From positions 1,035,442 through 1,099,441 of the forward strand of contig CBDCVA010000002.1 of the NCBI GenBank assembly GCA_965222935.1: DNA of 64,000 nt, read 5' to 3'. The stretch is from Candidatus Latescibacterota bacterium. GTDB taxonomy: Bacteria; Latescibacterota; CBDCVA01. The notes beneath the pieces are model-generated. The model saw only the letters and a list, made by a program, of their open reading frames with translations, ran no database searches and was not told the origin of the DNA. This document shows, piece by piece, positions 46,314 through 62,139 of the stretch; within the stretch, counting starts at the first letter, position 1, and every line of letters begins with the position of its first letter. The translations under genes were made by a program, and so were the position numbers.

Positions 46314-47504
46314 ATGATGCTTCGGTTCGGATCGTGCGCTTTTGTCCTGGCCATCGCGCTGGCACCCGTCCTGGCGGTGCAGCCTGCGAGAACGGATAGC
46401 GTCTTCTCCGCCAACGGCGTCGGGGTCGAAGTGGACCAGGCGAGCCTGCGTTCACGCGCCCTGGGCGGCGCGGAGATCGCCGCGCTCGACCCCGAGGGTT
46501 TTCCGGGGCGCAACCCGGCGGGCGTACTCGCCTCGGACGGACCCGGCGTGGCCACCTCCTACGTCGGTCAGTGGCGCGAGCTCAAGCCCGCGGCGGGCGA
46601 GCGGACCACGGTCACGGACGGGCGGATCGACTACCTGCGCCTGATCGTTCCCGTCTCTCCGAAGACCGGCCTGGCCTTTGGCCTGACGCCCCTTACACGC
46701 GTCAGCTTCGGCACACGCTACGACCAGACCGTTACCCTGGGGGGGATGCCGACCCACCTGGATATCCAGTGGCACCTGCACGGCGGCCTGAGCGAGGCGG
46801 CCCTGGATATCGCGCGTCGCCTGAGTCGCCGCCTGATCGTCGGACTGCGCGTGGGGAGCGTCTTCGGGCCTCTGAAGGAAAAGTGGGAGCTTTCCGCCTC
46901 TGGAGGCACCACGTTCACCTCGGCCGAAAGCGAGCTGTTGCGCGAGCACCTGGGGTTGCGGGTCAAGTTCGGCGCCATCGCGGAGCTGGCGAAAGGTCTG
47001 ACCGCAGGAGCCATCTACGTGCCGCAGGTGGACATCAACCAGAGGCGGCGCATCAACAAGGTCGCCGGCGAACGCCTCCTGGCGAAGGGCACCTTCGAGA
47101 TGCCAGCGGAGTGGGGTCTGGGCGCGGCGCTCGTTGCCGGGTTCTGGGAGGTGCGCGCGGACGTCTCCCAGACGCGCTGGGCCGGCGCCGAAAACCCCGA
47201 AAGCCAGCTTCGCTTCCGCAACACAATGGCTCTAGCGACGGGAATCCAGCGCCGCCTGCGGCAGCGCGGGCTGGTGGTGGGGATAGGGTACCGCCAGCGC
47301 GAGCTCTATGTGCTCCACCCGGGCGAGACCCGGCCACGGACCGAGCGCTTTATCACCTGGGGCGTGGGCTTCCGCAGCCCCGAGCGCGAGGGAAAGGGCC
47401 GGTTCGGCATCGACATCGCGGCCGAGTACGGCGTTCGGGACAACGAGGGCGGCCTGACCGAACGCGCGCTGCGTCCGGCCGTCTCGTTTGCGCTCTGGCC
47501 CTAA
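46314..47504 (+). CDS. hypothetical secreted protein (possibly beta-barrel)
   Basis: Signal peptide MMLRFGSCAFVLAIALAPVLAVQPA; start 6 nt after the stop of the lipoprotein gene; alternating hydrophobic pattern; family not recognised. Confidence 0.45.
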   Translation: MMLRFGSCAFVLAIALAPVLAVQPARTDSVFSANGVGVEVDQASLRSRALGGAEIAALDPEGFPGRNPAGVLASDGPGVATSYVGQWRELKPAAGERTTVTDGRIDYLRLIVPVSPKTGLAFGLTPLTRVSFGTRYDQTVTLGGMPTHLDIQWHLHGGLSEAALDIARRLSRRLIVGLRVGSVFGPLKEKWELSASGGTTFTSAESELLREHLGLRVKFGAIAELAKGLTAGAIYVPQVDINQRRRINKVAGERLLAKGTFEMPAEWGLGAALVAGFWEVRADVSQTRWAGAENPESQLRFRNTMALATGIQRRLRQRGLVVGIGYRQRELYVLHPGETRPRTERFITWGVGFRSPEREGKGRFGIDIAAEYGVRDNEGGLTERALRPAVSFALWP

Positions 47505-49349
47505 CTATCTCCCAAGGGCCGCAACGCGATCCGCACCCTCGGCATCGCCGAACTGAAGCTCGTAGAGCTTCGCGTAGAGCCCGCCGCGTTCGATGAGCTC
47601 CCGGTGCGTCCCTTGCTCCCGGACACGCCCGCGCCCCAGCACGATGATCTTGTCCGCCGTGCGGATGGTCGAAAGCCGGTGCGCGATGACAAGTGACGTC
47701 CGCCCCGCCATCAACTTCGTCAGCGCGTCCTGGATCAACAACTCCGTCTCGGTGTCAACGCTGCTAGTCGCCTCGTCCAGGACCAGGATGCGCGGGTCGG
47801 CCGCCAGCGCCCGCGCGAAGGCGATGAGCTGCCGCTGCCCCACCGAAAGGAGCGCTCCCCGCTCGCCCAAGGGCGTGTCGTAGCCATCAGGGAGCGCCCG
47901 AATGAACCGATCGGCATTCACGTGGCGCGCCGCGGCCTCCACCCTTTCGCGGCTGATGGCGGGTTTTCCCAGCGTGATGTTGCGAAGGACCGTGTCGCTG
48001 AAGATGAACGGGTCCTGAAGCACGATGGCGAGCTGGGACCTCAGCGCCGGCTTGCTCAATTCGCTGATGTGGGTGCCATCCAACAGGATCGATCCGCGTT
48101 CGATCTCATAAAAGCGACCCAGAAGGCTCGTGATCGTCGTCTTGCCCACACCCGTCGGGCCGACGATGGCCAGCCGGTCGCCTGGCTCAGCGGCGAAGCT
48201 CACGCCCTCGAGGACGGGCTCACCGGGGCTGTAGCTGAAGTGCACGTCGCGGAACTCGATCCTCGCTCCGCCCCCATTCCCGCCCGAGATGGGCGTGAAG
48301 AGTCCGGGGCGGCCCTCGGCGCCGTCGCCTCCAGCCGCTCCGAGACCGGCTTCCTCCGGTTCGTCGAGCAGTGCGAAGATCCGCTCGCTGGCGGCCATCG
48401 CGGCCTGGATGACATTGTAGCGCTCGGTCAAGTTGCGGATGGGCCAGAAGAAGCGGCGCGAATAACCGATGAATGCCACCAGCACTCCCACCTGGAGGGT
48501 GTCCTCGATGGCTCGAAAACCGCCGTACCAGATAATCAGCGCTACGCCCACCGCCTGGAGCACATCCGCCATCGGGATGAACGCCGCGTAGTAGAAGACG
48601 CTGCGGATGAACGCATCGCGGTAGCCCGCGTTAATCGTCCGGTAGCGGTCCAGGTGGTGCCGTTCACGGCAGAAGAGTTGAACGACCCCGATGCCGGTGA
48701 GGGTCTCCTGGGCCAGCGCATTCATCTCAGCGAGCTTGACGCGCGTCTGGCGGTAAGCCACACGGACCAACCGTTTGAACTGCCACAGCGTGAGCGTGAG
48801 CAGCGGCAGAAGCGCCAAGACGACCAGCGCCAGCCGCCAATCGAGCAGGAACATGGCGACGGCGACGCCCACCACGATGAACAGATCTCCCAGGATGGTG
48901 ACCACGCCCGTACTGAAGAGCTCATGCAGCGCCTGGACGTCGGACGTCACGCGCGTCATCACCTGACCAACGGGCCGCTTGTCGAAGAAGCGCTGCTCCA
49001 TCCGCTGAACGTGCTCGAAGATTCCCGCGCGCACGTCGAACATGGCATTCTGTCCGGCCACCTGCGTGATGTAGTTGTGGGCGAAACGCAGCCCGAAGAA
49101 CACCAGGCGCGTCCCCACGTAGATGAGCGCGATGACCCACAGGCCGCGGACATCGCCGTGGGCAATGTGATCGTCGATGGCGACCTTGATCAGGTACGGC
49201 CCCAACAGCTCCAGCGCCGACCCGGCGAACAGAAGCACAAGCGCGACACCCAACTGCGCCGAATACGGCCGCAAGTAGCGCAGGAGCCTCCACGCAAGCT
49301 GCGCGTCGTAGACCTTCTGCTCCTGATCGACCCCGGCGCCCTCGTTCAT
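47505..49349 (-). CDS. ABC transporter ATP-binding/permease fusion protein (type I exporter)
   Basis: Six-helix TMD followed by NBD with Walker A GPTGVGKTT, signature LSVGQRQLIAFARAL, Walker B ILVLDEATSSVD. Confidence 0.9.
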   Translation of the reverse strand: MNEGAGVDQEQKVYDAQLAWRLLRYLRPYSAQLGVALVLLFAGSALELLGPYLIKVAIDDHIAHGDVRGLWVIALIYVGTRLVFFGLRFAHNYITQVAGQNAMFDVRAGIFEHVQRMEQRFFDKRPVGQVMTRVTSDVQALHELFSTGVVTILGDLFIVVGVAVAMFLLDWRLALVVLALLPLLTLTLWQFKRLVRVAYRQTRVKLAEMNALAQETLTGIGVVQLFCRERHHLDRYRTINAGYRDAFIRSVFYYAAFIPMADVLQAVGVALIIWYGGFRAIEDTLQVGVLVAFIGYSRRFFWPIRNLTERYNVIQAAMAASERIFALLDEPEEAGLGAAGGDGAEGRPGLFTPISGGNGGGARIEFRDVHFSYSPGEPVLEGVSFAAEPGDRLAIVGPTGVGKTTITSLLGRFYEIERGSILLDGTHISELSKPALRSQLAIVLQDPFIFSDTVLRNITLGKPAISRERVEAAARHVNADRFIRALPDGYDTPLGERGALLSVGQRQLIAFARALAADPRILVLDEATSSVDTETELLIQDALTKLMAGRTSLVIAHRLSTIRTADKIIVLGRGRVREQGTHRELIERGGLYAKLYELQFGDAEGADRVAALGR

Positions 49350-51148
49350 GCGTGCGCGATTTCCTCCGCCAGCAACTGTTTGCGGTAGAGCGCGGCGTAA
49401 CGCCCGCCCTTCGCCAGAAGCTCCTCGTGCGTCCCCTGCTCGACGATCCGCCCTTCATCGAGGTAAACGATCAGGTCGCAATCCTTGATGGTGGAAATGC
49501 GGTGCGAGACGAAAAGACAGGTTTTGCCCCGGGTCGCTTCCACAAGCCCCGCCAGGATGCGTTCCTCCATCTCTGCGTCAACCTGGCTGAGCGCGTCGTC
49601 GAACAGGAAGATCTCCGGATTGACGAGCAGCGCCCGGGCAATGGCCACACGCTGCTTCTGGCCGCCCGAGAGCGTCACGCCCCGCTCGCCCACTACCTGA
49701 TCGAGTCCATCGGCGAACTGGGCCAGGTCCGCCTCCAGTCCTGCCAGGCGCACGACCTTGTCCACGCGCTCGTCGGACGCCTCGTCAACGCCATAGGTCA
49801 CGTTGCGGCGCACCGTGTCGCTGAAGAGGAACGCTTCCTGCGGAACCGCGCCGATGGAGTGCCGCAGCGCCCGGAGCGAAATCTGCCGCACCGGCGCCCC
49901 TCCGACGGCGATGCTCTCGCCGGCCGCGTCGTACAGGCGCGTCAAGAGCGACAATAGCGTGGACTTGCCCGAGCCCACCGGCCCCACGACCGCCACCCGC
50001 GCACCCTCGGGGAGATTCAGCGTGAGGTCGTGCAGGACGGGTCTGCCGTCATAAGCGAAGGAGAGGCCGCGCAGCGCGATGTCCCCGCGCACGCGTTCTC
50101 CGGACGCCTCCGGCTGCGAATCGGTGATGGTCGGCTCGGCCTCGATGACCTCCCGGATGCGCGCCCAAGAGGCCGCCCCGCGCTCGTAGAGATTCCACAC
50201 CCACCCGATGGAGATCATGGGCCAGATGAGCATGACCAGGTAGCCGTCGAAGGCGACGAACTCTCCCAGGGTCAGCTCGCCCGCGATCACGCGCTGACCG
50301 CCCACGAGCAAGATCAACGCCGCACCCAGTCCACCGATCGTCATGAAAAGCGGCATGAAGATTCCCCGCGCTATCGCCAGTGAGATGCTCCGCTGCACAT
50401 ATTCCCGAGTTACTCCGCGGAACTCCTCGCCCTCGACCGCCTCCATGCCGTAAGCCTTCACCACACGGATGCCCGACAGGTTCTCCTGAACTTTGGTGTT
50501 GATCACGCTGAACTGCTCCTGGACGCGCCGGAACCGCTCGTGGATGGCCCTGCCCAACGTCTTCGCTGCGATGGGGAAAAGCACGAGCGGGATGAGCGAG
50601 ATGACCGTCAGGCTCGGATCAATGACGAGCATGAACGAAAGCGCTGCGACGCCCACGACAATGCCCTCCGACGAGTACATGATCCCCGGACCCAGCATTT
50701 CGCGCACCGCGTCCATGTCATTGGTCAGCCGCGCCATCACGTCGCCCGTCCGCCACCGGTTGTAGAAGGGAGCGTCCAGCCGCAGCAGACGGTTGAAGAG
50801 CATGTTACGCAAGTCGAACTCGATCCGGCGGGAAGCGACGATGGTCGTACGCCGGACGAGGTAGAGGAAGACGCCGTAACCTATCATGGCGCAGACGAGC
50901 AGGACCGCGTAGTCCGCCAACACCGAGCGGTCGAGCCCGCCCTCCAACTCATCGATCGCGGCCCGCACGATCCATGGCACCAGCGCCATCAGTCCATGCG
51001 CGACGGCCGTCGCCGCGAACCCCGCGACGAGCACGCGCCTGTACCGCCAGACGAAGGGGGCCAGACCGCGCAGCTTACGTATCACGGGCGGCTCATCCCA
51101 CCGCTTGCGTCCCGATGCGCGCGAACCCCTCGGCAAACCGGCAGTCAT
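49346..51148 (-). CDS. ABC transporter ATP-binding/permease fusion protein (partner of 47505..49349)
   Basis: Walker A GPVGSGKST, signature LSGGQKQRVAIARALL, Walker B IFLFDDALSQVD. 4-nt overlap with the downstream partner. An alternative GTG start at 51085 would remove the overlap with the upstream gene. Confidence 0.9.
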   Translation of the reverse strand: MTAGLPRGSRASGRKRWDEPPVIRKLRGLAPFVWRYRRVLVAGFAATAVAHGLMALVPWIVRAAIDELEGGLDRSVLADYAVLLVCAMIGYGVFLYLVRRTTIVASRRIEFDLRNMLFNRLLRLDAPFYNRWRTGDVMARLTNDMDAVREMLGPGIMYSSEGIVVGVAALSFMLVIDPSLTVISLIPLVLFPIAAKTLGRAIHERFRRVQEQFSVINTKVQENLSGIRVVKAYGMEAVEGEEFRGVTREYVQRSISLAIARGIFMPLFMTIGGLGAALILLVGGQRVIAGELTLGEFVAFDGYLVMLIWPMISIGWVWNLYERGAASWARIREVIEAEPTITDSQPEASGERVRGDIALRGLSFAYDGRPVLHDLTLNLPEGARVAVVGPVGSGKSTLLSLLTRLYDAAGESIAVGGAPVRQISLRALRHSIGAVPQEAFLFSDTVRRNVTYGVDEASDERVDKVVRLAGLEADLAQFADGLDQVVGERGVTLSGGQKQRVAIARALLVNPEIFLFDDALSQVDAEMEERILAGLVEATRGKTCLFVSHRISTIKDCDLIVYLDEGRIVEQGTHEELLAKGGRYAALYRKQLLAEEIAHA

Positions 51149-51803
51149 CCATCCCCGCCGTGATGTTCGCTTCGAGCGCCCGGTAGCGCGCCAGGACCCC
51201 GTAGCTCTCCGACAACTGAGGTTGCGCGGCCAGCGCCTTCATAGCCTCGACCTTCCTGTCGAAAACCGACGTGATGTCAACATAGAGGTGGGGCAGGAAC
51301 TTCGTGACGGGCGCTGTTCCCAGATGCGCCTCGTAGCAGACCAGATCGGGCCGATCGAACGGCGGGTGCGAGGTCTCGATCCCCGGCGCGCCGCAGTAGC
51401 TGCGGGCCCAGAGGACAGCCTGGGTCGTCTCGAAGTGGTCGGGATGCGTAAAATCGTTGATCCAGTGGCTCAGCACCAGGTCGGGCCGGAATGCTCGGAT
51501 CGTATCGAGAACCTGAAGCCGACGATCCGGCCCCAGTATCAGCGGACTGTCCCCGAAGTCGAAGCAATCGATCTCCGCCCCGAGAATCCCCGCCGCCGCC
51601 TCGATCTCCGCCTTGCGAATCGCTTTGATCTCATGGGGCGTCGGTCGAGGGTCTCTCGCCCAGAGCGTCGCGGATTCGCATCGCTCACCGTAGGTCATGT
51701 CGTACACCTGCACCGTCCCTCCAGCCTCGACGAACCGGATGATCGTGCCCCCGGCGCGAGAGCAGAAGTCGGCCGCGTGGGCGCTGAACACCAGCACCCG
51801 CAT
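51093..51803 (-). CDS. PIG-L/LmbE-family deacetylase-like protein with a non-canonical first metal-binding motif
   Basis: MRVLVFSAHAADF... (canonical families carry AHPDDE) and a downstream HPDH motif (...WINDFTHPDHFETTQAV...). Confidence 0.6.
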   Translation of the reverse strand: MRVLVFSAHAADFCSRAGGTIIRFVEAGGTVQVYDMTYGERCESATLWARDPRPTPHEIKAIRKAEIEAAAGILGAEIDCFDFGDSPLILGPDRRLQVLDTIRAFRPDLVLSHWINDFTHPDHFETTQAVLWARSYCGAPGIETSHPPFDRPDLVCYEAHLGTAPVTKFLPHLYVDITSVFDRKVEAMKALAAQPQLSESYGVLARYRALEANITAGMDDCRFAEGFARIGTQAVG

Positions 51804-52012
51804 TCCTTCGCCGATCATCGCCGCTCCTTAGGTATGATGCCAGACAGAGAGTCAAGGCCACACGGCCTGCGCATACCGCCCCATGATAACCCGTAAGCCA
51901 TACCCGGCGCCAATCGAAGCGCTCGGAAAGCAGGGCCGGCGAGACCGCGCTGAAGCCCGTCATCCAAGCGGCCATCGGAGACTTTTCACGTCTGGACGCG
52001 CCTCAGGGACGC

Positions 52013-52041
52013 TTGACACGCCGCGCGACCCGCCTTAATCA
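52013..52041 (+). promoter_or_regulatory. candidate sigma70-type promoter for the M24 peptidase gene
   Basis: TTGACA (52013-52018), 17-nt spacer, TAATCA (52036-52041); AGGAG RBS at 52066-52070 precedes a TTG start at 52077. Confidence 0.4.
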
Positions 52042-52076
52042 TTCGGCGACGCCCATCCTTGACCCAGGAGGCACGC

Positions 52077-53153
52077 TTGGACCGCATTGCGAAGCTCCTC
52101 GCCTTACTGGCACGCCGCGCCGCGGGCGGTTACGTCACCGGCGTCCGCCAGCATCTTCACTACTTCACGGGCATCTACGATGTGGGCGGGGCCTTGCTCG
52201 TCGCCCCCGGCCGCCAACCGGTTCTGTGCGCCAGCTTCTATGACCGCTACAACGCTATGGATCAGGCCGAGGCCCTGGGCTGTGACGTCGAGATCACCCA
52301 CCCCCCGGACCGCCTCGCGTCGATCGCGGGGCCGATCGCCGAGCGGATCGAGGCCTGGGGGCTGCGATCCGTCCTGCTCGACGGCGCGGGGCGACCGGAG
52401 GGCTTTGCGGAGGTTGCCCCGAGCACCGCGTTCGCTATGGACGACCACGCGGGCTTTGAGATCCGGCGCAAGAAAGAACCCGGGGAGTACGCGATGCTCC
52501 GCAGAGCCTGCAGTATCGCCGATGCGGCCATGGGTGCCATGTTCGCAGCCATCCGCCCCGGTGTTCGCGAGACCGACATCGTTGGCGAAGGGCAGTACGC
52601 GGCACGGCGGCTCGGCAGCGAGTGGGACGCCTTCACATTCCGCATGACGAGCGGGCCGCGTTCGGCCTACCCCGACGGCAACGCCACCGATCGCATCATC
52701 CAGCGAGGCGATATGGGCTTCATCGATGTCGGGATCCTCCACTACGGCTACCTTGGCGATTTCACGCGCAGTTTTGTCGTCGGCGAGCCGATCCCCCTCC
52801 AGACCGAGATCATCAGTGCCGCGACGAACGCCATGCTCGCCGCCCAAGAGGCCGCAAAGCCCGGGATGCCCGCCCGCGACCTGCATCGGGTCTGCGTGGA
52901 CGCCCTCGCCGAAGCCGGCCTGGCCGAGCACTTCTTCCACCACGCCGGCCACGGCCTGGGCCTCGGCGTCGAGCCGCCCATGATCACGCCCGAATCGGAA
53001 GATGTGATGGCGGAGGGGGATTGCTTCACCATCGAGCCCGGTGTCTACATCCGGGGCTTCGGCGGCGCCCGCATGGAGAACGACCTGATCCTGTACGCCG
53101 ACGGGGTCGAGAGCATGACGAAGTTCCCCCTCGACTTCGTTCTGGCCGTATGA
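52077..53153 (+). CDS. M24-family metallopeptidase (Xaa-Pro aminopeptidase/creatinase-like)
   Basis: Pita-bread fold segments (...GDMGFIDVGILHYGYLGDFTRSF..., ...HHAGHGLGLGVEPP..., ...GDCFTIEPGVY...). Start assigned to the TTG at 52077 (the ORF-track start at 52059 is also TTG). Confidence 0.75.
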   Translation: MDRIAKLLALLARRAAGGYVTGVRQHLHYFTGIYDVGGALLVAPGRQPVLCASFYDRYNAMDQAEALGCDVEITHPPDRLASIAGPIAERIEAWGLRSVLLDGAGRPEGFAEVAPSTAFAMDDHAGFEIRRKKEPGEYAMLRRACSIADAAMGAMFAAIRPGVRETDIVGEGQYAARRLGSEWDAFTFRMTSGPRSAYPDGNATDRIIQRGDMGFIDVGILHYGYLGDFTRSFVVGEPIPLQTEIISAATNAMLAAQEAAKPGMPARDLHRVCVDALAEAGLAEHFFHHAGHGLGLGVEPPMITPESEDVMAEGDCFTIEPGVYIRGFGGARMENDLILYADGVESMTKFPLDFVLAV

Positions 53154-53175
53154 TTGTAGCTAGAGGAGCCGTATT

Positions 53176-55017
53176 GTGAGTGCCGCCACGACCTTCGACA
53201 GCACGAAGGACTACCTCTCTTTATTCCTCGCCGACATCGCGCAGGGCAAGACGCAGTTGCCCGACTTCCAGCGTGACTGGCTCTGGGATGACCAGCGCAT
53301 CGTCAGCCTCCTTGCTAGCATTTCGCAGTCCTTCCCGATAGGCGTGGTGATGATGCTTGAGACGGGCAGCGATGCAGTTCGGTTCAAGCTCAGGCCCGTT
53401 GAGGGAGTTCCAGAAGAGTCTATCCGGGCGGAGCCCGAACGGCTCATCCTCGACGGTCAGCAGCGGCTGACGGCGCTGTTCCAGGCACTCCAGTCCGGTA
53501 AGGCGGTGGCCACCAGGGACACGCGGCGCCAGAAGACCTTACGCTGGTATTACCTCGACATGACCAAGGCGCTGAACCAAGACGACGAGCGCGAGAATGC
53601 CATCATCAGTCTTCCCAAGAATCGCCGGACACGCGATTTTCGTGGCAATGTCATTGACGACTACTCTTCGCCGGATAGCGAGTACGCTGCCTGCTTGTTT
53701 CCCCTCGCTAAGGTGTTCAACTACGCGGATTGGCGTTGGGGGTTCAACAAGTACTGGAACTACGCTCCTGAGAAGGGGGAGCTCTTCGATGCCTTCGAGC
53801 AGGAGATCGTCAAACGGTTCGAGCAATATCAGATCCCGCTCATCCTCCTGAAGAAGGGAACCCCGAAGAAAGCGGTCTGCCAGGTCTTTGAGAAGGTCAA
53901 CACTGGCGGGGTGTCTCTGAGCGTCTTCGAGCTGCTCACTGCCACCTATGCTGCCGACAATTTCCGTTTGCGGGAGGACTGGGATGCCCGGCAGAAGCAG
54001 CTCGCCAAGCACCCTGTGCTGGAGGACATTCAGAGCAGCGACTTCCTGCAGGCCGTCACGTTGCTCACGACACGCGACCGACGTGAGAAAGCGCTCGGTC
54101 AAAGCGTTGCTGCGGACAGGGCTCCTGGGATCAATTGCAGGCGAGAGGCAATCCTGGACCTGGAGGACTACGAAGCCTGGGCCGACCACGCGACCGTCGG
54201 TTTCGAAAAAGCTGCGAAACTTCTCTTCAGTCAGAAGCTCTTCGATTCCCGCGATCTTCCCTATCGTACCCAACTCACACCCCTGGCCGCGATCCTAGCG
54301 ACGCTTGGCGACCGATCAGAGAAAGATGGTGTGCGCGCGAAGCTCATCCGCTGGTACTGGTGCGGCGTCTTCGGCGAGTTGTACGGAGGGTCAATCGAAA
54401 CGAGGTTTGCGAACGACCTTCCCGAGGTTCTCGACTGGATCGATGGCGGCCCAGAACCGGCGACGGTCGTTGACGCCAACTTTGCGGCCGTTCGCCTTCT
54501 CACGCTGCGGACACGCAATAGCGCCGCTTACAAGGGCTTGTACGCTCTCTTGCTGCGCAATGGCGCATGGGACTTCCTCTCCGGGGAAACGATCGACGTG
54601 CAGATGTACTCCGATGACAAGATCGATATCCACCACATTTTCCCGAGAGCCTGGTGTCTCGAGAAAGAGGTTGACGCGAACCGGTGCGACAGCATCGTCA
54701 ACAAGACTCCTTTGTCCGCTAGAACCAACCGCATAATCGGCGGAAAGCCCCCCAGCATCTACCTGCCCCGCATACAGAGGCTCGCTGGCATTGACGAGAG
54801 CAGAATGAACCAGATCTTGCAGTCGCACGTGATCGACCCTGAAGCCCCGCGAGCGGACGACTTCGAGGCGTTCTGGAAGAAGCGAGAGGAAGCACTGCTT
54901 GACCGCATCGAGAAGGCGATTGGGAAACCCATCGCGCGGGATATGCCGGTGGCTGAAGCCGAGACAGGAGAAACAGAAGAAGATGAACCGGATGAGGACG
55001 CTGCTCAGGACGACTGA
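53176..55017 (+). CDS. DUF262-DUF1524 two-domain protein (GmrSD/BrxU-like type IV restriction endonuclease family)
   Basis: N-terminal DUF262 hallmarks LPDFQRDWLWDDQRIVSLLASI and ILDGQQRLTAL; C-terminal DUF1524/His-Me-finger-like DIHHIFPRAWC...NKTPLSARTNRIIGGKPP; acidic tail. GTG start with GGAG RBS. G+C visibly lower than neighbours. Confidence 0.7.
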   Translation: MSAATTFDSTKDYLSLFLADIAQGKTQLPDFQRDWLWDDQRIVSLLASISQSFPIGVVMMLETGSDAVRFKLRPVEGVPEESIRAEPERLILDGQQRLTALFQALQSGKAVATRDTRRQKTLRWYYLDMTKALNQDDERENAIISLPKNRRTRDFRGNVIDDYSSPDSEYAACLFPLAKVFNYADWRWGFNKYWNYAPEKGELFDAFEQEIVKRFEQYQIPLILLKKGTPKKAVCQVFEKVNTGGVSLSVFELLTATYAADNFRLREDWDARQKQLAKHPVLEDIQSSDFLQAVTLLTTRDRREKALGQSVAADRAPGINCRREAILDLEDYEAWADHATVGFEKAAKLLFSQKLFDSRDLPYRTQLTPLAAILATLGDRSEKDGVRAKLIRWYWCGVFGELYGGSIETRFANDLPEVLDWIDGGPEPATVVDANFAAVRLLTLRTRNSAAYKGLYALLLRNGAWDFLSGETIDVQMYSDDKIDIHHIFPRAWCLEKEVDANRCDSIVNKTPLSARTNRIIGGKPPSIYLPRIQRLAGIDESRMNQILQSHVIDPEAPRADDFEAFWKKREEALLDRIEKAIGKPIARDMPVAEAETGETEEDEPDEDAAQDD

Positions 55018-55056
55018 TCTGCCACCTAAAGGCGTGGCCATAAAGGAGCGAATGCC

Positions 55057-56094
55057 ATGAAAGCTGTTTACAAAATGCGCCCCGAGCCCGGCGCCATCGA
55101 GGTCCGCGAGGTGACCCCCAAGCCCTTGAGCCCCACCGAGATTCGCATCCAGCCCGTCGGCTCCAATATCTGCGGCTCCGACATCGGAGCCTACCACTAC
55201 GCGCCCGCCTTCCACTACATCAAGCCGCCGTTCATCATGGGCCACGAGTTCGCGGGCACGGTCGTCGAGATCGGCGCCCGCGTCGAGCGCATCAAAGTCG
55301 GCGAGCGCGTCTACCCCGAAGCGGTCAAGTACTGCGGCCATTGCACCCAGTGTAAGCGCGGCAGGACCAACATCTGCCAGAACTTCGTCATCTTCGGGCT
55401 GCACACCGACGGCGGCATGTGCGAGCTGGCGACCTTCGACGAGAAATACGCCCACCGCGTTCCCGAGGGCATGACCCTGGAGCAGGCCACCTACATCGAG
55501 CCTACCTCCGTGGGCGTCCACGCCGTCACGGGCCACGACAATCGATTCGAGGCCCATGACCTCGTCGTCGTCGCCGGCGTGGGGCCCATCGCGCTTCTCG
55601 CCGCCCAGGTCGTCCGAGCCACGCGCACGCCCAATGTCATCACAACGGGACTCGACGTGGATGAGGCCATTCGCTTCCCCATCGCACGGCAGATTGGCCT
55701 GGAACCGGTCAACATCCAAAAGACCGACCTGGCCGAGCTGGTCAATGAGCGGACAGACGGACGCGGAGCCGACGTCTTCGTCGAAGCCTCGGGCGCACCC
55801 CGAGCGATGGTGCAGGGCGTCGAGATTCTCAAGAAGGGCGGCCTGTTCATCATGGTCGGCATCCAGGAGGGCGAGGCCACGATGGCGATGGCCCCGATGA
55901 TCCGCAAGGAGATACGCATTCAGGGGACCATCAGCGGCCACTGGAAGGACTTCGAGGCAGCAGCTCAGCTTATCGCCAAGGGGGATGTCCGGGTGGACCC
56001 GCTCATGGCCCAGTTCCCGATGGAGCGCGTCGAGGACGCCTTTGCGGCCGTGCAGGACCGATCGGTCATCAAAGCGATGGTCGTCCCGGACTAG
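55057..56094 (+). CDS. zinc-dependent alcohol/polyol dehydrogenase (MDR superfamily)
   Basis: CGSDIGAYH, GHEFAG, CGHCTQCKRG, VVAGVGPIALL. Confidence 0.85.
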   Translation: MKAVYKMRPEPGAIEVREVTPKPLSPTEIRIQPVGSNICGSDIGAYHYAPAFHYIKPPFIMGHEFAGTVVEIGARVERIKVGERVYPEAVKYCGHCTQCKRGRTNICQNFVIFGLHTDGGMCELATFDEKYAHRVPEGMTLEQATYIEPTSVGVHAVTGHDNRFEAHDLVVVAGVGPIALLAAQVVRATRTPNVITTGLDVDEAIRFPIARQIGLEPVNIQKTDLAELVNERTDGRGADVFVEASGAPRAMVQGVEILKKGGLFIMVGIQEGEATMAMAPMIRKEIRIQGTISGHWKDFEAAAQLIAKGDVRVDPLMAQFPMERVEDAFAAVQDRSVIKAMVVPD

Positions 56095-56129
56095 GGGCCC
56101 CGGCGCAAGCCTAAAGCGAGGAGAATCCG

Positions 56130-56834
56130 ATGACCCCAGACGGCAACCCTCTGATCGTGCTGATGCACACCTCCCTCGTCACGATGAAGAGCATCGTCGA
56201 GGACACCATCGGGGAGATGATCCCCGAGGCGGTCGTCAAGAACGTGATGGATGATACGCTTCTCATGGATGTCATGGCCCACCCGGAGGGGCCGACCCAT
56301 AACGTCAAGCGCCGCTGCGCCGAGTACGCCATGGCCGCTCAGGACGCGGGCGCCGACGTGATCTTCAACGTCTGTTCTTCGGTCAGGGAGGCGTACCACC
56401 TCGCCAAAGAGGTCGTGGACGTGCCGCTGCTCAACATCGACGAGCCGATGGCTGAGGCAGCCATTGGGCGCGGGACGAAGATCGGCATGGTCGCCACGGG
56501 CAGGAGCACGTTCGAGCCCACGACGCGCCTTCTCTACCGCAAGGCGGAGGCGGCGGGGGTGGAGATCACGGTCGAGCGGACGCTGCTTCAGGAGGCCTTC
56601 GACGCCCTGGTCGCGGGCGACGAGCAAAAGCACAACGACCTGCTGGTCGGCGAGATCACGCGCCTGGCGGGCATCTGCGACGTCGTCGTTCTGGCGCAGG
56701 GCTCGATGGCGCGCGTGGTGCCCTTGCTGCCACCCGAGGTGCAGCGGAAGACCATCACCAGCCCCCGGCTGTCGGTCGAGCGCGCCAGGGCGTTGCTCAA
56801 GGAGCGGCTGGCGGATGTGGCCGTAGCGGCGTGA
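56130..56834 (+). CDS. Asp/Glu/hydantoin racemase-like protein (family assignment tentative)
   Basis: Two-lobed alpha/beta pattern with ...IFNVCSSV... and ...VVVLAQGSMA... segments reminiscent of Asp/Glu racemase-superfamily enzymes. Confidence 0.4.
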   Translation: MTPDGNPLIVLMHTSLVTMKSIVEDTIGEMIPEAVVKNVMDDTLLMDVMAHPEGPTHNVKRRCAEYAMAAQDAGADVIFNVCSSVREAYHLAKEVVDVPLLNIDEPMAEAAIGRGTKIGMVATGRSTFEPTTRLLYRKAEAAGVEITVERTLLQEAFDALVAGDEQKHNDLLVGEITRLAGICDVVVLAQGSMARVVPLLPPEVQRKTITSPRLSVERARALLKERLADVAVAA

Positions 56835-56897
56835 GGCGGATCTCCACCCCAGGTGGAGTGCTCCGTGACCCACACCTGAACCACTGGAGGCAACAGC

Positions 56898-57998
56898 GTG
56901 TCCAAAGACCTTCTAGGCGTCGGCATCGTCGGCTGCGGCGGCATTGCGAATAACCATGCCAAGGGTGTGATCGATTCGGGCGAGGGGCGCCTCGCCGCGT
57001 TATGCGATACCTTGCCCGAGCGAACCTCCGACTACGCCGAGCGGTACGCGCCGGATGCGAAGCAGTACACCGATAGCCGCGAGTTGTGCGCCGATCCGAA
57101 CGTGGACGCCATCCTCGTCTGTACGCCGCACGGCTCGCACTGCCGCGTTCTAGCCGAAGCGGCCGAGGCGGGGGTGCACGGCATGTGCGAGAAGCCCATG
57201 TCGAATGATCTGCGCGAGTGCGATAAGGCCATCGAGGCGCACAAGAAAGCGGGCACCAAGCTCGGCGTCATCCACCAGCGACGCTACTACAACGCCAGCC
57301 AGCGCCTTCGCCGCGCCATCGATGAGGGCAGGCTGGGGAAGCCCATCCTGGGCGACATCGTCGTCAAGTGGTGGCGCGGACCCGACTACTACGCCCGCGA
57401 CTCCTGGCGCGGCAGGTGGGACACCGAAGGCGGCGGGGTTTTGGTCAACCAGACGCCCCATCAGCTCGACGCCCTCGGATGGTATATGGGGCCGGTCGAG
57501 TGGGTCCACGGGATGTGGTCGGCCAACAAGCCCTATATGGAGTGCGAGGACACCGCGGTCGCCACGGTGAAGTTCCGTTCCGGTGGACTGGGGATGATCC
57601 AGGTCTCCATCTCCCAAAACCCCAACCTCTTCGCCCGCGTCACCATTCACGGCGACAACGGCAAGTCGGCCAGCATCTACGAGCACGGGGAGGGCGCCGT
57701 CTTCACCAACGACATCTGGACCCTCCCCGGCGAGGAGGATCTGCCCCAGAAGTGGGCCGAGGAGGACTTCAAGACCGAGACCTTTCAGGGTAACCACGCC
57801 AAGCAGATCCGCGATTTCCTGGAGGCTATCAAGGAGGACCGCGAGCCGTACGTCGGAGGCGAAGAGGGGCGCAAGACCGTGGAGCTCATGGTCGCCATCC
57901 TGCTCTCGGGCAGGCTGGGCGAGACGGTCCACTTCCCCGTCGAGCCGATGAGCACCACGATGGCCGCCATCGACCGGGAGGCCACCAACTACGCGTGA
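56898..57998 (+). CDS. Gfo/Idh/MocA-family oxidoreductase
   Basis: GVGIVGCGGIANNH Rossmann start, CEKPM motif, ...WRGRWDTEGGGVLVNQ... shared with the next paralogue. Confidence 0.85.
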   Translation: MSKDLLGVGIVGCGGIANNHAKGVIDSGEGRLAALCDTLPERTSDYAERYAPDAKQYTDSRELCADPNVDAILVCTPHGSHCRVLAEAAEAGVHGMCEKPMSNDLRECDKAIEAHKKAGTKLGVIHQRRYYNASQRLRRAIDEGRLGKPILGDIVVKWWRGPDYYARDSWRGRWDTEGGGVLVNQTPHQLDALGWYMGPVEWVHGMWSANKPYMECEDTAVATVKFRSGGLGMIQVSISQNPNLFARVTIHGDNGKSASIYEHGEGAVFTNDIWTLPGEEDLPQKWAEEDFKTETFQGNHAKQIRDFLEAIKEDREPYVGGEEGRKTVELMVAILLSGRLGETVHFPVEPMSTTMAAIDREATNYA

Positions 57999-58041
57999 AT
58001 TCCCTTGGCGCCATGGACGATATCTGCCGCCGCGCTCAAGA

Positions 58042-59163
58042 ATGCCCGCACGGCCTCAGCGCCGGTGGCCGTGCGGGGGGGCCGAAGCTAACCTCTTGGA
58101 CCCCATAGGCGTCGGGATCGTCGGGGCGGGCCACATTGCGCCTCAGCACGCCGAGGCGCTCAGAGGTCTTGAGGAGGCCCGCTTGATCGCCGTCTGTGAC
58201 ATCGTCGAGGGGAAAGCCGAGACGCTCGCGGATCGCTTCGGTGCCCCCAAAGTCTACGATGACGTCGAGAAGCTCGTGCGTGATCCTGACATCGAGGCGA
58301 TCTGCGTCACCACCCCCCACAAGTGGCACGCACCGCCGGTCGTCGCCGCCGCCGGGGCGGGCGTCCACGCGCTCTCCGAGAAGCCCATGGCCGCCGACCT
58401 CGCCGACTGCGACCGGATGATCGAGGCGCACCGGAAGGCGGGCACTAAGCTCGGCGTCATCTTCCAGCGGCGCTGGTCCCCGGGGGCGCGCCGCATCCGC
58501 GACGCCATCGACGCCGGCAAGTTCGGCGAGCGGCTGGTCCTCGGCGACTGCGTCTTCAAGGGCTGGCGCGGACCCGATTACTACGCCTTAGACCTATGGC
58601 GCGGCAGGTGGGACACCGAAGGCGGGGGCGTTCTGCTCAACCAGTCGATCCACTCTATCGACTTGCTACAATGGTACATGGGCCCGGTGAACGCGCTGTG
58701 GGGCCAGTGGGGCAACATGAACCACCCTTACGTCGAAGTCGAGGACACGGCGTGCGCCGTCCTGCGCTTCAAGTCGGGGGCCTTGGGCGTCATCGAGAAC
58801 TCGGTGAGCCAGAACCCGCAGGTCTACGTCAAGGTGGCCGTCCACGGCTCCAACGGCGCCAGCGCCGACGTCGTCCTCGAAGGTCCCCACGCCGAGGAGG
58901 GCGCCAACGAAATCTGGACGATCCCTGGAGAAGAGGCACCGGGACGGGAGCCCGCGAAACCCATCGGCACCAGCCGGGCGGCAGTCGAGTACCACAGGGC
59001 TCAGATTCAGGACTTTCTCCAGGCCATCCGCGAGGATCGCCAGCCGGTCGTGAACGGCGAGGAAGGGCGCAAATCCATCGAGATCATCACGGCGATCTAC
59101 CGCTCTCAGGCCACCGGCGAGGTCGTCCGCTTCCCCGTGCCTACCGATGACTTCAGGGGGTGA
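58042..59163 (+). CDS. Gfo/Idh/MocA-family oxidoreductase (paralogue)
   Basis: GVGIVGAGHIAPQH, SEKPM, ...WRGRWDTEGGGVLLNQ...; true start is probably downstream of the ORF-track start. Confidence 0.85.
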   Translation: MPARPQRRWPCGGAEANLLDPIGVGIVGAGHIAPQHAEALRGLEEARLIAVCDIVEGKAETLADRFGAPKVYDDVEKLVRDPDIEAICVTTPHKWHAPPVVAAAGAGVHALSEKPMAADLADCDRMIEAHRKAGTKLGVIFQRRWSPGARRIRDAIDAGKFGERLVLGDCVFKGWRGPDYYALDLWRGRWDTEGGGVLLNQSIHSIDLLQWYMGPVNALWGQWGNMNHPYVEVEDTACAVLRFKSGALGVIENSVSQNPQVYVKVAVHGSNGASADVVLEGPHAEEGANEIWTIPGEEAPGREPAKPIGTSRAAVEYHRAQIQDFLQAIREDRQPVVNGEEGRKSIEIITAIYRSQATGEVVRFPVPTDDFRG

Positions 59164-59346
59164 GGTGCGGCACTTGCCTCGGAAGCCGAAAAGTGCGAAT
59201 CTAAAGGGTCTTGAAAAGGCACGCTGTGAGAAGGAGCGGCTCGCTCCCGGCCACAGCTATCAGTCCTATAGAACATAGCACTGTCAAGGGTCGTTTTTCA
59301 TGCACGCGACTGGCGCTCTAGAACGCTATACTCAGGGGGCAATCCG

Positions 59347-60381
59347 ATGAAAGCTGTCGTCAAATATGGCTACGGCCCTGGCAAGGTGGAACTCAGGGAC
59401 ACGCCGGAGCCCGAGGTCGGGCCGGGGCTGGTGAAGCTTCGCGTGAAGGCGGCGGGGATCTGCGGGAGCGATTTACACGCCTATCACGAGATGATCAAGT
59501 TCAACTTCAAGTACCCGGTGATCGTCGGCCACGAATTCGCCGGCGACGTGACCGAGGTTGGTGAGGGCGTCGAGGGCATCGAGGTCGGCGAGCGGGTGAC
59601 GAGCGAGACGACGGCCATCAACTGCGGCGTCTGCGAGTACTGCCGCACCGGCTACTACAATATGTGCCTGAGCCGGTCCGTCGTCGGCTACGACTGGGAT
59701 GGCGGGTTCACCAGCTACTGCGTCGTGCCCCAGAAGAACATCCACAAGCTCCCCGAGAACGTGGACTACATCGCCGGTGCGCTCACCGAGCCCTTGGCCT
59801 GCTGCATCCACGGCGTCACCGAGCAGACGGGCATCAACGCGGGCGATCTCGTCCTGATCGTCGGCCCCGGGCCGATTGGGCTTTTGACCCTTCAGGTCGC
59901 CCTAGCCGAGGGCGGGCAAATCGTCATCTGCGGGACAAGCCAGGATGCGGGGCGACTTAAGATCGCCGAGGATCTGGGCGCCGATTATGCCCTGAACGTC
60001 GAGGAGACCGACGTCGTCAAGTTTGTGGGGGACCTCACCGGCGGCTACGGGGCCGACATCGTCCTCGAATGCTCCGGCGCCGAGAAGGGCGCACAACTGG
60101 GCATCGAGGCCGCCCGCAAGCGCGGCAAGTACACGCAGATGGGCCTCTTCGGCAAGCCCATCACCCTTGATTTCGAGCGCATCGCTTACAAGGAGCTTCA
60201 AGTGACCGGCTTTCTCTCGCAGAAGCGGAGCGCCTGGCAGCGCGCGCTCAAGCTCGAAGCGCAGGGCAAGATCAGTCCCAGCAAAGTCGTCAGCCACCAG
60301 GTGCCGATAGACGAGTGGAAGCGCGGCTACGAAATGAGCGAGAACAAGGAAGCGCTCAAAGCGATCATCATCCCCGAATAG
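59347..60381 (+). CDS. zinc-dependent alcohol/polyol dehydrogenase (MDR superfamily)
   Basis: CGSDLHAYH, GHEFAG, CGVCEYCRTG, LIVGPGPIGLL; the 3' end is duplicated at 62045-62116. Confidence 0.85.
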   Translation: MKAVVKYGYGPGKVELRDTPEPEVGPGLVKLRVKAAGICGSDLHAYHEMIKFNFKYPVIVGHEFAGDVTEVGEGVEGIEVGERVTSETTAINCGVCEYCRTGYYNMCLSRSVVGYDWDGGFTSYCVVPQKNIHKLPENVDYIAGALTEPLACCIHGVTEQTGINAGDLVLIVGPGPIGLLTLQVALAEGGQIVICGTSQDAGRLKIAEDLGADYALNVEETDVVKFVGDLTGGYGADIVLECSGAEKGAQLGIEAARKRGKYTQMGLFGKPITLDFERIAYKELQVTGFLSQKRSAWQRALKLEAQGKISPSKVVSHQVPIDEWKRGYEMSENKEALKAIIIPE

Positions 60382-60384
60382 CCG
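60313..60384. repeat. left copy of a ~72-bp direct repeat (3' end of the ADH gene) flanking the methyltransferase insert
   Basis: gagtggaagcgcggctacgaaatgagcgagaacaaggaagcgctcaaagcgatcatcatccccgaatagcc recurs at 62045-62116 with one 1-nt indel and one substitution. Confidence 0.85.
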
Positions 60385-60391
60385 GATACGT

Positions 60392-61402
60392 ATGTGCCCA
60401 CGTTACTCTGAAGGAATTTCTCCTTCACAATTGCCGATCCCCACTGAGGCGTTTACGGCTAAACCGGGTGATAGCACCTTAAGGCGCGCGGCGTTCGACG
60501 CAAAAGCGGCCTCCGGCAAGCACGTCATATACAACGTTGACGCTTTCGCATGGCTATCCGAGCAGCCATCGAACTCGGTTCAAGCGGTTGTGACTGATCC
60601 GCCGTACGGCCTCCTTGAATATCGACCCGAGGAACTCGAGAAAATGAAGCATGGCCGGGGAGGCGTCTGGCGCATCCCGCCGAGCTTCGATGGCGCCAAG
60701 CGCAGGCCGCTGCCCAGGTTCACTGTGCTAAGAGACCAGGATAAGGCTGAGCTTGAGGCGTTTTTCAGGCGATTCTCAGAGGCACTTCTACCGGTTCTTG
60801 TGCCTGGAGCCCACGTTTTCGTTGCGACGAACCCGCTTGTCTCGTATCTGGTCTACGGGCCTTTCATTGAGAACGGATTCGAGCCGCGCGGTGAGATCAT
60901 CCGGGTTGTTCAACGGCTACGGGGAGGCGACAGGCCCAAAAACGCCCACAAGGAATTCGCTGGGGTAACGGTCCTACCGAAGTCTTGCTGGGAGCCTTGG
61001 GGATTGTTCCGCAAGCCGTGCGAGGGTCGTGTCCAGGACAACCTGCGTGAGTGGAAAACAGGAGGATTGCGGCGCATCTCGCCAGAGGAGCCTTTCAAGG
61101 ACCTGATAGAGTCGTCTCCGACCAGACGTACCGAGTTCTCGATAGCTCCGCACCCGTCCCTGAAACCACAGCGCTTCATGCGCAAACTCGTCAGGGCCGC
61201 TCTGCCTCTAGGTGAGGGGATCATCCTTGATCCCTTCATGGGGTCGGGTTCTACAATCGCGGCGGCGGCGGCTGAGGGGGTACAGAGCGTCGGCCTGGAG
61301 ATTAGCCCGGAGTACTTTCACCTGGCAGTTGAGGCCATACCGAAGCTGGCGGCGCTTGAAGTGTCGGAGCAGAACCGCAACGGCACGAACTCAGGACTTT
61401 AA
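60392..61402 (+). CDS. DNA methyltransferase, N6-adenine/N4-cytosine type (beta-class motif order)
   Basis: Catalytic DPPY (...AVVTDPPYGL...) precedes the SAM-binding FxGxG motif (ILDPFMGSGST); visibly lower G+C. Confidence 0.8.
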   Translation: MCPRYSEGISPSQLPIPTEAFTAKPGDSTLRRAAFDAKAASGKHVIYNVDAFAWLSEQPSNSVQAVVTDPPYGLLEYRPEELEKMKHGRGGVWRIPPSFDGAKRRPLPRFTVLRDQDKAELEAFFRRFSEALLPVLVPGAHVFVATNPLVSYLVYGPFIENGFEPRGEIIRVVQRLRGGDRPKNAHKEFAGVTVLPKSCWEPWGLFRKPCEGRVQDNLREWKTGGLRRISPEEPFKDLIESSPTRRTEFSIAPHPSLKPQRFMRKLVRAALPLGEGIILDPFMGSGSTIAAAAAEGVQSVGLEISPEYFHLAVEAIPKLAALEVSEQNRNGTNSGL

Positions 61403-61508
61403 CCCAAGTGTACCGCTGCCCCCTATACTTAGAATCCGGGCCATTCGTTCGTCGATCGAATACATCGAGCGCGAGTTGAACGAACTTGTCGACATATACT
61501 TTGAACAG

Positions 61509-62000
61509 ATGAATGTTTTTAGTGCCCTGGTGGGGATATTTGGGACTCGTGCCCTTGACCAACACAGCGTCTATGAGAAAGTCAGGCATACAGACATTGC
61601 CCAAACCCGATTTCCAGACCTCCGACGCAAGGGAAGTGGACTAAACCCACGGCCAAGTGAATGCCTGGAGTCCAAGGCGAGCAAGAGGCCCTGGCAACTT
61701 CAGTCGCACTACGACCACGAAGGATGGTACATTGTCTGGCGCTACCTGGTAGATGCAACGGCTTCAATTGAGTTGGAGAAGCACGTGATTGTATGGCGCG
61801 TCGATGTGGCCTACTTACGAGGTGAGGACTGGAAGTACGAAGGCAGCAGGGCTGGAATTGCCGGGGGCGGTCGCACGCATACCTTTGGCCTCAAGCAGCC
61901 AGCGAAGAGACTCCAGGGGTGTGCTGTCTATCGCCGCTCGGACATTGTGCTCTCTGGAGGCAAGCCCGTTCCGGCCAACAGCCACAACCATGCTCAGTGA
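61509..62000 (+). CDS. hypothetical protein; candidate cognate restriction endonuclease of the adjacent methyltransferase
   Basis: ORF directly downstream of the methyltransferase, same strand, same low-GC insert; weak PD-(D/E)xK-like segment YLVDATASIELEKH; start uncertain (TTG at 61476 or ATG at 61509). Confidence 0.3.
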   Translation: MNVFSALVGIFGTRALDQHSVYEKVRHTDIAQTRFPDLRRKGSGLNPRPSECLESKASKRPWQLQSHYDHEGWYIVWRYLVDATASIELEKHVIVWRVDVAYLRGEDWKYEGSRAGIAGGGRTHTFGLKQPAKRLQGCAVYRRSDIVLSGGKPVPANSHNHAQ

Positions 62001-62044
62001 CGCCGGGACCACGATATGTCTCAAAAGAAAAAGCGTGAGGGCAC

Positions 62045-62116
62045 GAGTTGGAAGCGCGGCTACGAGATGAGCGAGAACAAGGAAGCGCTCAAAGCGATCA
62101 TCATCCCCGAATAGCC
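62045..62116. repeat. right copy of the ~72-bp direct repeat (ADH 3'-end copy)
   Basis: gagttggaagcgcggctacgagatgagcgagaacaaggaagcgctcaaagcgatcatcatccccgaatagcc. Confidence 0.85.
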
Positions 62117-62139
62117 AAACCGGACGGGAGACAAAGAGC

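Follow-up and report, generated by a model that had tools for sequence, protein, structure and literature searches.

A GmrSD/BrxU-like gene, probably encoding a single-polypeptide type IV restriction nuclease, in a variable slot of a conserved catabolic gene cluster

The locus

The gene considered here occupies positions 53176..55017 on the + strand of a 64,000-nucleotide stretch of contig CBDCVA010000002.1, which is referred to below, as a whole, as the window. Its 613 codons, beginning with GTG, form an unbroken open reading frame (ORF), and the 613-amino-acid product has the domain architecture of the single-chain GmrSD/BrxU nucleases, enzymes of defence against phage DNA. An identical copy of the protein is present in public data. 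That the frame is not a chance ORF is evident from its GmrSD_N match (E=1.2e-27) and from more than 8000 homologues, and its start is equally well placed: more than 30 homologues have their initiator Met at the aligned position, and the Shine-Dalgarno sequence GAGGAG (53163..53168, + strand) precedes the GTG by 7 nt.

The neighbours on both sides are metabolic genes on the same strand. To the left lies the gene of an M24 (Xaa-Pro) peptidase (52059..53153, +; Pfam PF00557, E=3e-50), whose stop at 53153 is separated from the GTG by exactly 22 nt. To the right, 39 nt downstream, begins the gene of a Zn-dependent alcohol/polyol dehydrogenase, ADH1 (55057..56094, +; Pfam ADH_N and ADH_zinc_N). Both neighbours and the 22-nt spacing had been reported in an initial annotation made from the sequence, and the coordinates agree with it. 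The same holds for the lower G+C content of the gene, which is 0.588 as against 0.646–0.674 in the flanking genes; at third codon positions (GC3) the values are 0.743 and 0.85–0.91, respectively.

Domain architecture and conserved motifs

The N-terminal part of the protein is a DUF262/GmrSD_N (ParB/Srx-like NTPase) domain, residues 18–258 (53227..53949, +). Pfam PF03235 recovers it with E=1.2e-27 and 97.8 bits against a cutoff of 33.2, as the initial annotation anticipated, and the same model matches all 26 of 26 diverse family members. Within this domain, the DGQQR motif (D93–R97; 53452..53466, +) is the predicted site of nucleoside triphosphate (NTP) gamma-phosphate binding and hydrolysis and aligns with BrxU D98–R102, while S48 (53317–53319, +) is, by alignment, the counterpart of BrxU S42. 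In the homologue alignments D93, G94, Q96 and R97 are invariant down to 32% identity, with L92 preceding the motif; Q95 is near-invariant, being replaced once by Lys in one alignment (A1) and once by Leu in the other (A2), and Ser48 is invariant or near-invariant. The RLFDS segment of BrxU aligns to S44-L-L-A-S48, so that the Ser is kept and the Arg and Asp are not; RLFDS is also missing from GmrSD, SspE and HEC-06. In BrxU itself, S42, Q101 and R102 are needed for nucleotide handling and for phage defence (PMC8565348).

The NTPase domain is followed by an all-helical linker or middle domain (residues ~265–460; 53968..54555, +), defined from the secondary structure of the AlphaFold2 (AF2) model, where the predicted local distance difference test score (pLDDT) is mostly >85, and co-linear with that of BrxU. 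A search of the full protein and of C-terminal fragments against NCBIfam returned only a weak DGQHR match.

At the C-terminus, a profile match, a profile–profile alignment and a fold comparison independently identify a divergent His-Me-finger nuclease homologous to the DUF1524 domain of BrxU. Its core (HNH/DUF1524-like, residues ~469–530; 54580..54765, +) contains H486-H487 (54631–54636), N509 and N518. The full-length profile of the family matches BrxU (PDB 7P9K) with E=6e-10 in three co-linear stretches, the third of which runs from the H-I-x-P motif to the C-terminal helix. When the C-terminal profile is aligned by hhalign to BrxU residues 469–578, the probability is 91.4% and E=8.9e-7, with H486-H487 paired with BrxU D474-H475 and N509-K-T-P with BrxU N-K-L-P. 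BrxU is moreover the only significant structural match to the 613-aa protein, and it aligns over the full length. The support from HNH_4 (PF13395) is borderline: the score is 18.2 bits for the full protein, 19.5 for the C-terminal half and 23.3 for an excised 125-aa fragment, against a gathering threshold of 22, and the model reaches E<=0.05 in four of the 26 diverse members.

The sequence stretches from which the two domains had originally been read, LPDFQRDW (residues 28–35), DGQQRLTAL (93–101) and DIHHIFPRAW...NKTPLSARTN (484–518), could all be located, and the catalytic His and Asn residues are present on alignment. Across the family, H487 and N509 show no or almost no variation and H486 is near-invariant; N518 is invariant among close homologues and more variable in the diverse set. 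Two family members, P0155 and P0247, carry I-R-F-I-F-P and I-R-H-I-F-P in place of I-H-H-I-F-P and have thus lost one or both histidines; judged from these substitutions, they may be nuclease-dead variants.

The chain ends in a disordered tail, acidic as described earlier (residues 587–613; 54934..55014, +; pLDDT 31–36), which holds 13 Asp/Glu and one Arg, for a net charge of -12. Such a tail is found in 30 of 31 close homologues and in seven of the 26 diverse members (net charge -5 to -14). The sequence alignment with BrxU stops short of it.

Distribution and genomic contexts of the family

The family is large. Among 1.84 billion representatives searched, 1,715 clusters at 50% identity match the protein at E<=1e-30 and 12,112 at E<=1e-3. 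The 120 closest proteins are 58–70% identical to it with 93–100% query coverage and come from diverse lineages, Caldilineaceae and Ca. Solincola among them; in nearly every case PF03235 is the only precomputed domain. Homologues of 42–47% identity are carried on plasmids of Nostoc, Sphingopyxis, Burkholderia, Rhodococcus and others, where they are annotated merely as 'DUF262 domain-containing protein', and two near-full-length homologues occur in phage records. Some members bear C-terminal fusions, namely to Schlafen AlbA_2, DUF5655, DUF4268, DUF4357 or an OLD-like TOPRIM domain; similar extensions and fusions are carried by GmrSD relatives (PMC4619093).

In ten homologue contexts, no partner gene recurs. 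Several of these homologues adjoin type III or type I restriction–modification (RM) genes, Type ISP fragments, a REase-ARP/PDDEXK protein or toxin–antitoxin pairs, and others are located among housekeeping genes; plasmids, too, occur repeatedly among the contexts. Given the lack of a recurring neighbour together with the RM and toxin–antitoxin surroundings, the GmrSD/BrxU-like gene behaves as a solitary, mobile gene of the defence-island type. The earlier description of a stand-alone GmrSD/BrxU-like enzyme among metabolic genes therefore holds, both in the ten contexts without a shared partner and in the fusion of DUF262 domain, linker and nuclease in one chain.

These contexts also bear on two readings in which the protein would depend on other genes. 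According to the first, it is component C of the multi-gene PADLOC candidate system PDC-M55 and is not functional alone. PDC-M55C is indeed the best PADLOC match (E=1.9e-29), with HEC-05 second (E=7e-22; the HEC-05 representative tested in its study is 99.2% identical to BrxU). However, both matches are made through the N-terminal half, and that to PDC-M55C is partial, covering residues 14–424 of the protein and positions 17–391 of a 554-position profile. None of five neighbours scanned with PADLOC matches any component of the system, Pfam identifies the products of the neighbours as metabolic enzymes and ABC exporters, and the ten contexts contain no conserved neighbour. A literature search on PDC-M55 found no papers. 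With the linked genes missing, this reading was rejected, and we hold it to be very improbable.

The second is that the protein is a nicking or cleaving effector of the SspE/DndI kind, which senses phosphorothioate (PT) and relies on PT modification of the host DNA. SspE and DndI are structural relatives of the protein; however, no dnd or ssp genes are adjacent either in the window neighbourhood or in the ten homologue contexts, and the match to BrxU is far stronger by every measure. This reading, too, was rejected for want of the linked genes and has very little probability in our estimate.

Cassette replacement between the M24 peptidase and ADH1 genes

Two related loci, L171 and L172, were found via the 90%-identity cluster of ADH1 and a subsequent homology search; their ADH1 proteins are 98% and 78% identical to that of the window. 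The three loci share the gene order ankyrin, two unknowns, ABC, ABC, PIG-L, M24, slot X, ADH1, racemase, two GFO/IDH/MocA oxidoreductases (GFO), ADH2, slot Y, transketolase and E2, where slots X and Y denote the positions of variable content. In blastn comparison with L171, the window aligns at 44901–53148 (96.8% identity, the value also found for the M24 gene), 55043–60383 (95.4%) and 62043–64000 (97.5%), with sharp breakpoints. At slot X, homology is lost at the M24 stop codon and is back at the ADH1 ribosome-binding site.

What lies between these points differs in each of the three genomes. In the window it is a cassette of 1,894 bp (53149..55042) with the GmrSD/BrxU-like gene, to which blastn finds no counterpart in L171 or L172. 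In L171 the slot (8249–8986) is 738 bp long and holds a 183-aa gene of the GrpB family, and in L172 (8258–8986) it holds an unrelated ORF of 187 aa with a hydrophobic product. G+C is low in each of the three cargos, with GC3 of 0.61–0.74 (about 0.61–0.63 for those of L171 and L172). Since L171 and L172 carry different cargo at the same slot, what happened here was the exchange of one cargo for another in a variable slot, not a plain insertion. Of the acquisition by insertion that had been suggested for this gene, the horizontal gain thus stands, as the gene is absent from both relatives, while simple insertion gives way to cassette replacement. A GrpB gene also lies at the edge of a type III RM island in one of the homologue contexts (L170).

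No flanking direct or inverted repeats above chance were found around the cassette, which is without an integrase, and the 64-kb window has no tRNA genes. A search with ADH1 of genome and metagenome contig collections for an empty site returned only relatives of <=35% identity.

The host itself belongs to what is, judged by one marker, a deep and poorly sampled lineage, because no protein from outside the 90% cluster of its LepA/EF4 (3994–5832, - strand), a translation factor that evolves slowly, exceeds 66% identity to it, and the best outside matches, at 62–66%, are spread over Nitrospinota, Latescibacteria, KSB1, Bacteroidota, Gemmatimonadota and Bacillota. That the defence protein is 58–70% identical to its closest relatives across phyla, against at most 66% for LepA, argues for horizontal transfer.

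The methyltransferase module

A second acquired module, of about 1.66 kb (60384..62048, +), fills slot Y. It contains the gene of an N6_N4 DNA methyltransferase (60392–61402; G+C 0.587, GC3 0.656), 5.4 kb downstream of the GmrSD/BrxU-like gene, and an ORF of about 165 aa (61476/61509–62000) with no Pfam match. This ORF includes a stretch FPDL...ECLESK, which could be a PD-ExK motif. The 3' end of ADH2 is present twice, as a direct repeat of 68 bp that flanks the module on both sides (60316–60383 and 62049–62116, with one mismatch), and in L171 and L172, from which the module is absent, the transketolase gene directly follows ADH2. Probably a small type II RM module integrated here, duplicating its target in the process. 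The methyltransferase islet about 5 kb away that the initial annotation had pointed out is thereby located.

Because the same cluster, with flanks of 95–97% identity, occurs in L171 and L172 without either element, the GmrSD/BrxU-like gene and the methyltransferase module are both recent, lineage-specific acquisitions; for the former, the low GC3 relative to its flanks points the same way. Their absence from the syntenic relatives also bears out the proposal that defence genes have repeatedly been inserted here: slots X and Y are both filled with such genes in the window, and not so in L171 and L172.

N6_N4 methyltransferases make N4-methylcytosine or N6-methyladenine, not C5-modified cytosine. 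There would thus be no obvious conflict between this methyltransferase and a BrxU-like specificity of its neighbour.

Proposed function and mechanism

We propose that the product is a defence nuclease of the GmrSD/BrxU type in a single polypeptide, that its gene was acquired horizontally, and that the enzyme restricts modified phage DNA by an NTP-dependent type IV mechanism; we consider this proposal likely on balance. In BrxU, cleavage requires a hydrolysable NTP and prefers DNA with glucosylated 5-hydroxymethylcytosine (glc-5hmC), then 5-methylcytosine (5mC), then 5-hydroxymethylcytosine (5hmC), and the dimer becomes a monomer on nucleotide binding (PMC8565348). By analogy, the DGQQR motif and Ser48 would serve the DUF262 domain in binding and hydrolysing NTP, and this would license the C-terminal His-Me nuclease, in which H487 may act as the general base and N509 in a structural role, with the metal coordinated by H486 and N518. 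The target would be incoming DNA with base modifications that the host lacks, for example 5mC, 5hmC or glucosyl-5hmC; the enzyme would accordingly be modification-dependent, of type IV, and would need no partner. A specificity for glucosylated or hydroxymethylated DNA, in particular, would be an extrapolation from distant relatives at about 15% identity. The gene arrived horizontally as cargo of the variable slot between two conserved catabolic genes, with which it is probably transcribed.

Several results weigh against this reading. Identity to BrxU is just 14–17%, which means that substrate specificity is not transferable, and the trigger is another one in the structural relatives SspE and DndI. 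The DUF1524 domain that the initial annotation had expected a profile search to recover falls below the Pfam threshold: PF07510 gives no match on the full protein at E<=0.01, reaches E=0.11 on the excised 125-residue fragment (12.8 bits against a cutoff of 23), and attains E<=0.05 in just three of 26 diverse members (best E=0.013). Nor is there a significant match between the C-terminal profile and PDB sequences (BrxU E=0.21, viperin ~0.2, Cas9 HNH E=0.73). The AF2 model is weakest at the nuclease core, with pLDDT <50 at residues 482–484 and 510–513. The acidic position of the E/D-H-N-N signature is His486 in nearly all members of the clade, which read (I/V)-H-H-I-F-P, and no experimentally characterised member of the clade was found in the literature. 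Finally, a promoter and terminator scan around the cassette yielded nothing above chance, with no promoter-like site in the 22-nt gap, and so no dedicated promoter or terminator.

As to His486, colicin DNases are an example of HNH enzymes in which one metal ligand and the general base can come from an HH doublet, and the residue would therefore be compatible with catalysis; it is plausibly still a metal ligand, and the replacement of Asp/Glu may shift metal preference. Both residues of the corresponding pair E471-H472 are essential in HEC-06, as are both D474 and H475 for defence by BrxU (PMC8565348). In GmrD the core is (I/L/V)(E/D)H(I/L/V)xPQ ... N ... N, the 'E/D-H-N-N' signature (Machnicka et al., PMC4619093).

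Another interpretation keeps the fold and the defence role and changes the trigger. This could be another base modification (7-deazaguanines, N4 or N6 methylation or modified thymidines, for instance), a phage protein, or phage DNA without modification; altered metal use or autoinhibition would then account for the replacement of Asp by His and for the acidic tail. It draws on the 14–17% identity to BrxU, the escape of the clade from the DUF1524 model, the conserved HH doublet in place of (E/D)H, the acidic tail of close homologues and the example of HEC-06, which is GmrSD-like and has a phage range unlike that of BrxU. However, all GmrSD-fold enzymes with a known trigger (BrxU, GmrSD, SspE and DndI) sense DNA modification, and the sequence hints at no specific alternative. 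We regard a different trigger as unlikely, though, at about 15% identity to BrxU, not negligible in probability.

The sole + strand promoter-like site from the scan lies at 52013–52042, upstream of the M24 gene, and co-transcription of the GmrSD/BrxU-like gene with the catabolic genes is plausible, if putative. The tight same-strand spacing within a metabolic cluster and the lack of a promoter or terminator of its own would also suit a silent or non-defence passenger, either unexpressed or with a housekeeping role in the catabolic operon. This is hard to reconcile with the intact ORF, the conserved catalytic residues and the good Shine-Dalgarno sequence, with the absence of the gene from two relatives that keep the operon, or with the patchy cross-phylum distribution that includes plasmids, and we think it most improbable that the gene is such a passenger rather than a defence nuclease.

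More speculatively, the M24–ADH1 slot might serve as a hotspot that takes up cargo without an integrase and brings defence genes under catabolic-operon control, and the HH-I-F-P clade might be functionally distinct from BrxU and GmrSD in recognising another nucleic-acid mark or a phage factor, in using a His-ligated metal (such as Zn, Ni or Mn) and in having a DNA-mimicking tail as a check. Taken as a whole, this scenario is rather doubtful.

Significance

This is a fairly ordinary defence gene, which belongs to a known family and to a clade that is itself uncharacterised in the literature found, and as a recognisable single-gene, type IV-like restriction enzyme it adds little conceptually. 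It has some practical value through the clade, which comprises at least ~1,700 clusters at 50% identity labelled only 'DUF262 domain-containing protein'. Because the nuclease domain misses the Pfam DUF1524 threshold and the PADLOC matches are partial, standard pipelines may under-call the clade as defence genes. Relative to the BrxU mechanism there are two variations, His instead of Asp/Glu where the metal ligand is expected, and the acidic tail. In addition, the comparison of three genomes documents turnover of defence genes at slots defined to the base pair, within a conserved cluster of sugar and amino-acid catabolic genes of a deep, poorly sampled lineage.

Other features of the window

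Elsewhere in the conserved cluster, the ankyrin-repeat protein gene (43766–45031) has a G+C and a GC3 of 0.52 each, against a window mean of 0.636, yet it is conserved in L171; it may be an older foreign acquisition. The tandem GFO/IDH/MocA oxidoreductase genes (56898–59163) are paralogues of ~71–72% DNA identity, and the corresponding part of L172 looks rearranged and has only fragments called in it. The transketolase-type gene (62140–64000, +) starts near 62140, runs off the end of the window and is missing from the ORF lists; a 370-aa ORF on the minus strand (62566–63678), in which G+C at first codon positions is 0.85, is probably its antisense shadow. The window also contains a second M24/creatinase-type peptidase gene at 37086–38312 and three genes of the GHL10 (glycosyl hydrolase-like 10) family, at 13369–14967 (-), 39338–41122 (+) and 41881–43632 (+), two of which are adjacent paralogues.

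Comparison with known systems

Four known groups of proteins share features with the 613-aa protein to differing degrees. The resemblance to Cas9-type HNH nucleases (HNH_4, PF13395) is limited to a catalytic core of ~50 residues; neither the context nor the remainder of the protein is related. Similarity to SspE and DndI (PDB 6JIV, 7DRI and 9JFL), the PT-sensing DUF262–DUF1524 effectors, is much weaker than that to BrxU, and these systems differ further in that their ssp or dnd modification genes are not nearby in any context seen here.

GmrSD (Eco94GmrSD, or the EcoCT pair GmrS and GmrD) shares the N-terminal PF03235 domain with (I/V)DGQQR, and its C-terminal motifs (I/L/V)(E/D)H(I/L/V)xPQ and ...N...N (PMC4619093) are resembled by those of our protein. 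Unlike in GmrSD, PF07510 stays below threshold and a His replaces the acidic residue of E/D-H-N-N.

The closest likeness is to BrxU (7P9K). The two are set apart by their low identity (~14–17%), by SLLAS in place of RLFDS and His486 in place of D474, and by the acidic disordered tail, which belongs to the 613-aa protein and is absent from BrxU. Their surroundings also differ, as the present gene sits in a catabolic cluster, whereas that of BrxU is part of a BREX system. Both are nevertheless single polypeptides of ~590–610 aa in which a DUF262 domain, a helical linker and a His-Me nuclease follow one another co-linearly; both have DGQQR, the S42-equivalent Ser, the catalytic His of H-I-x-P, NKxP and a downstream Asn; and BrxU is likewise encoded by a single gene inside another gene cluster.

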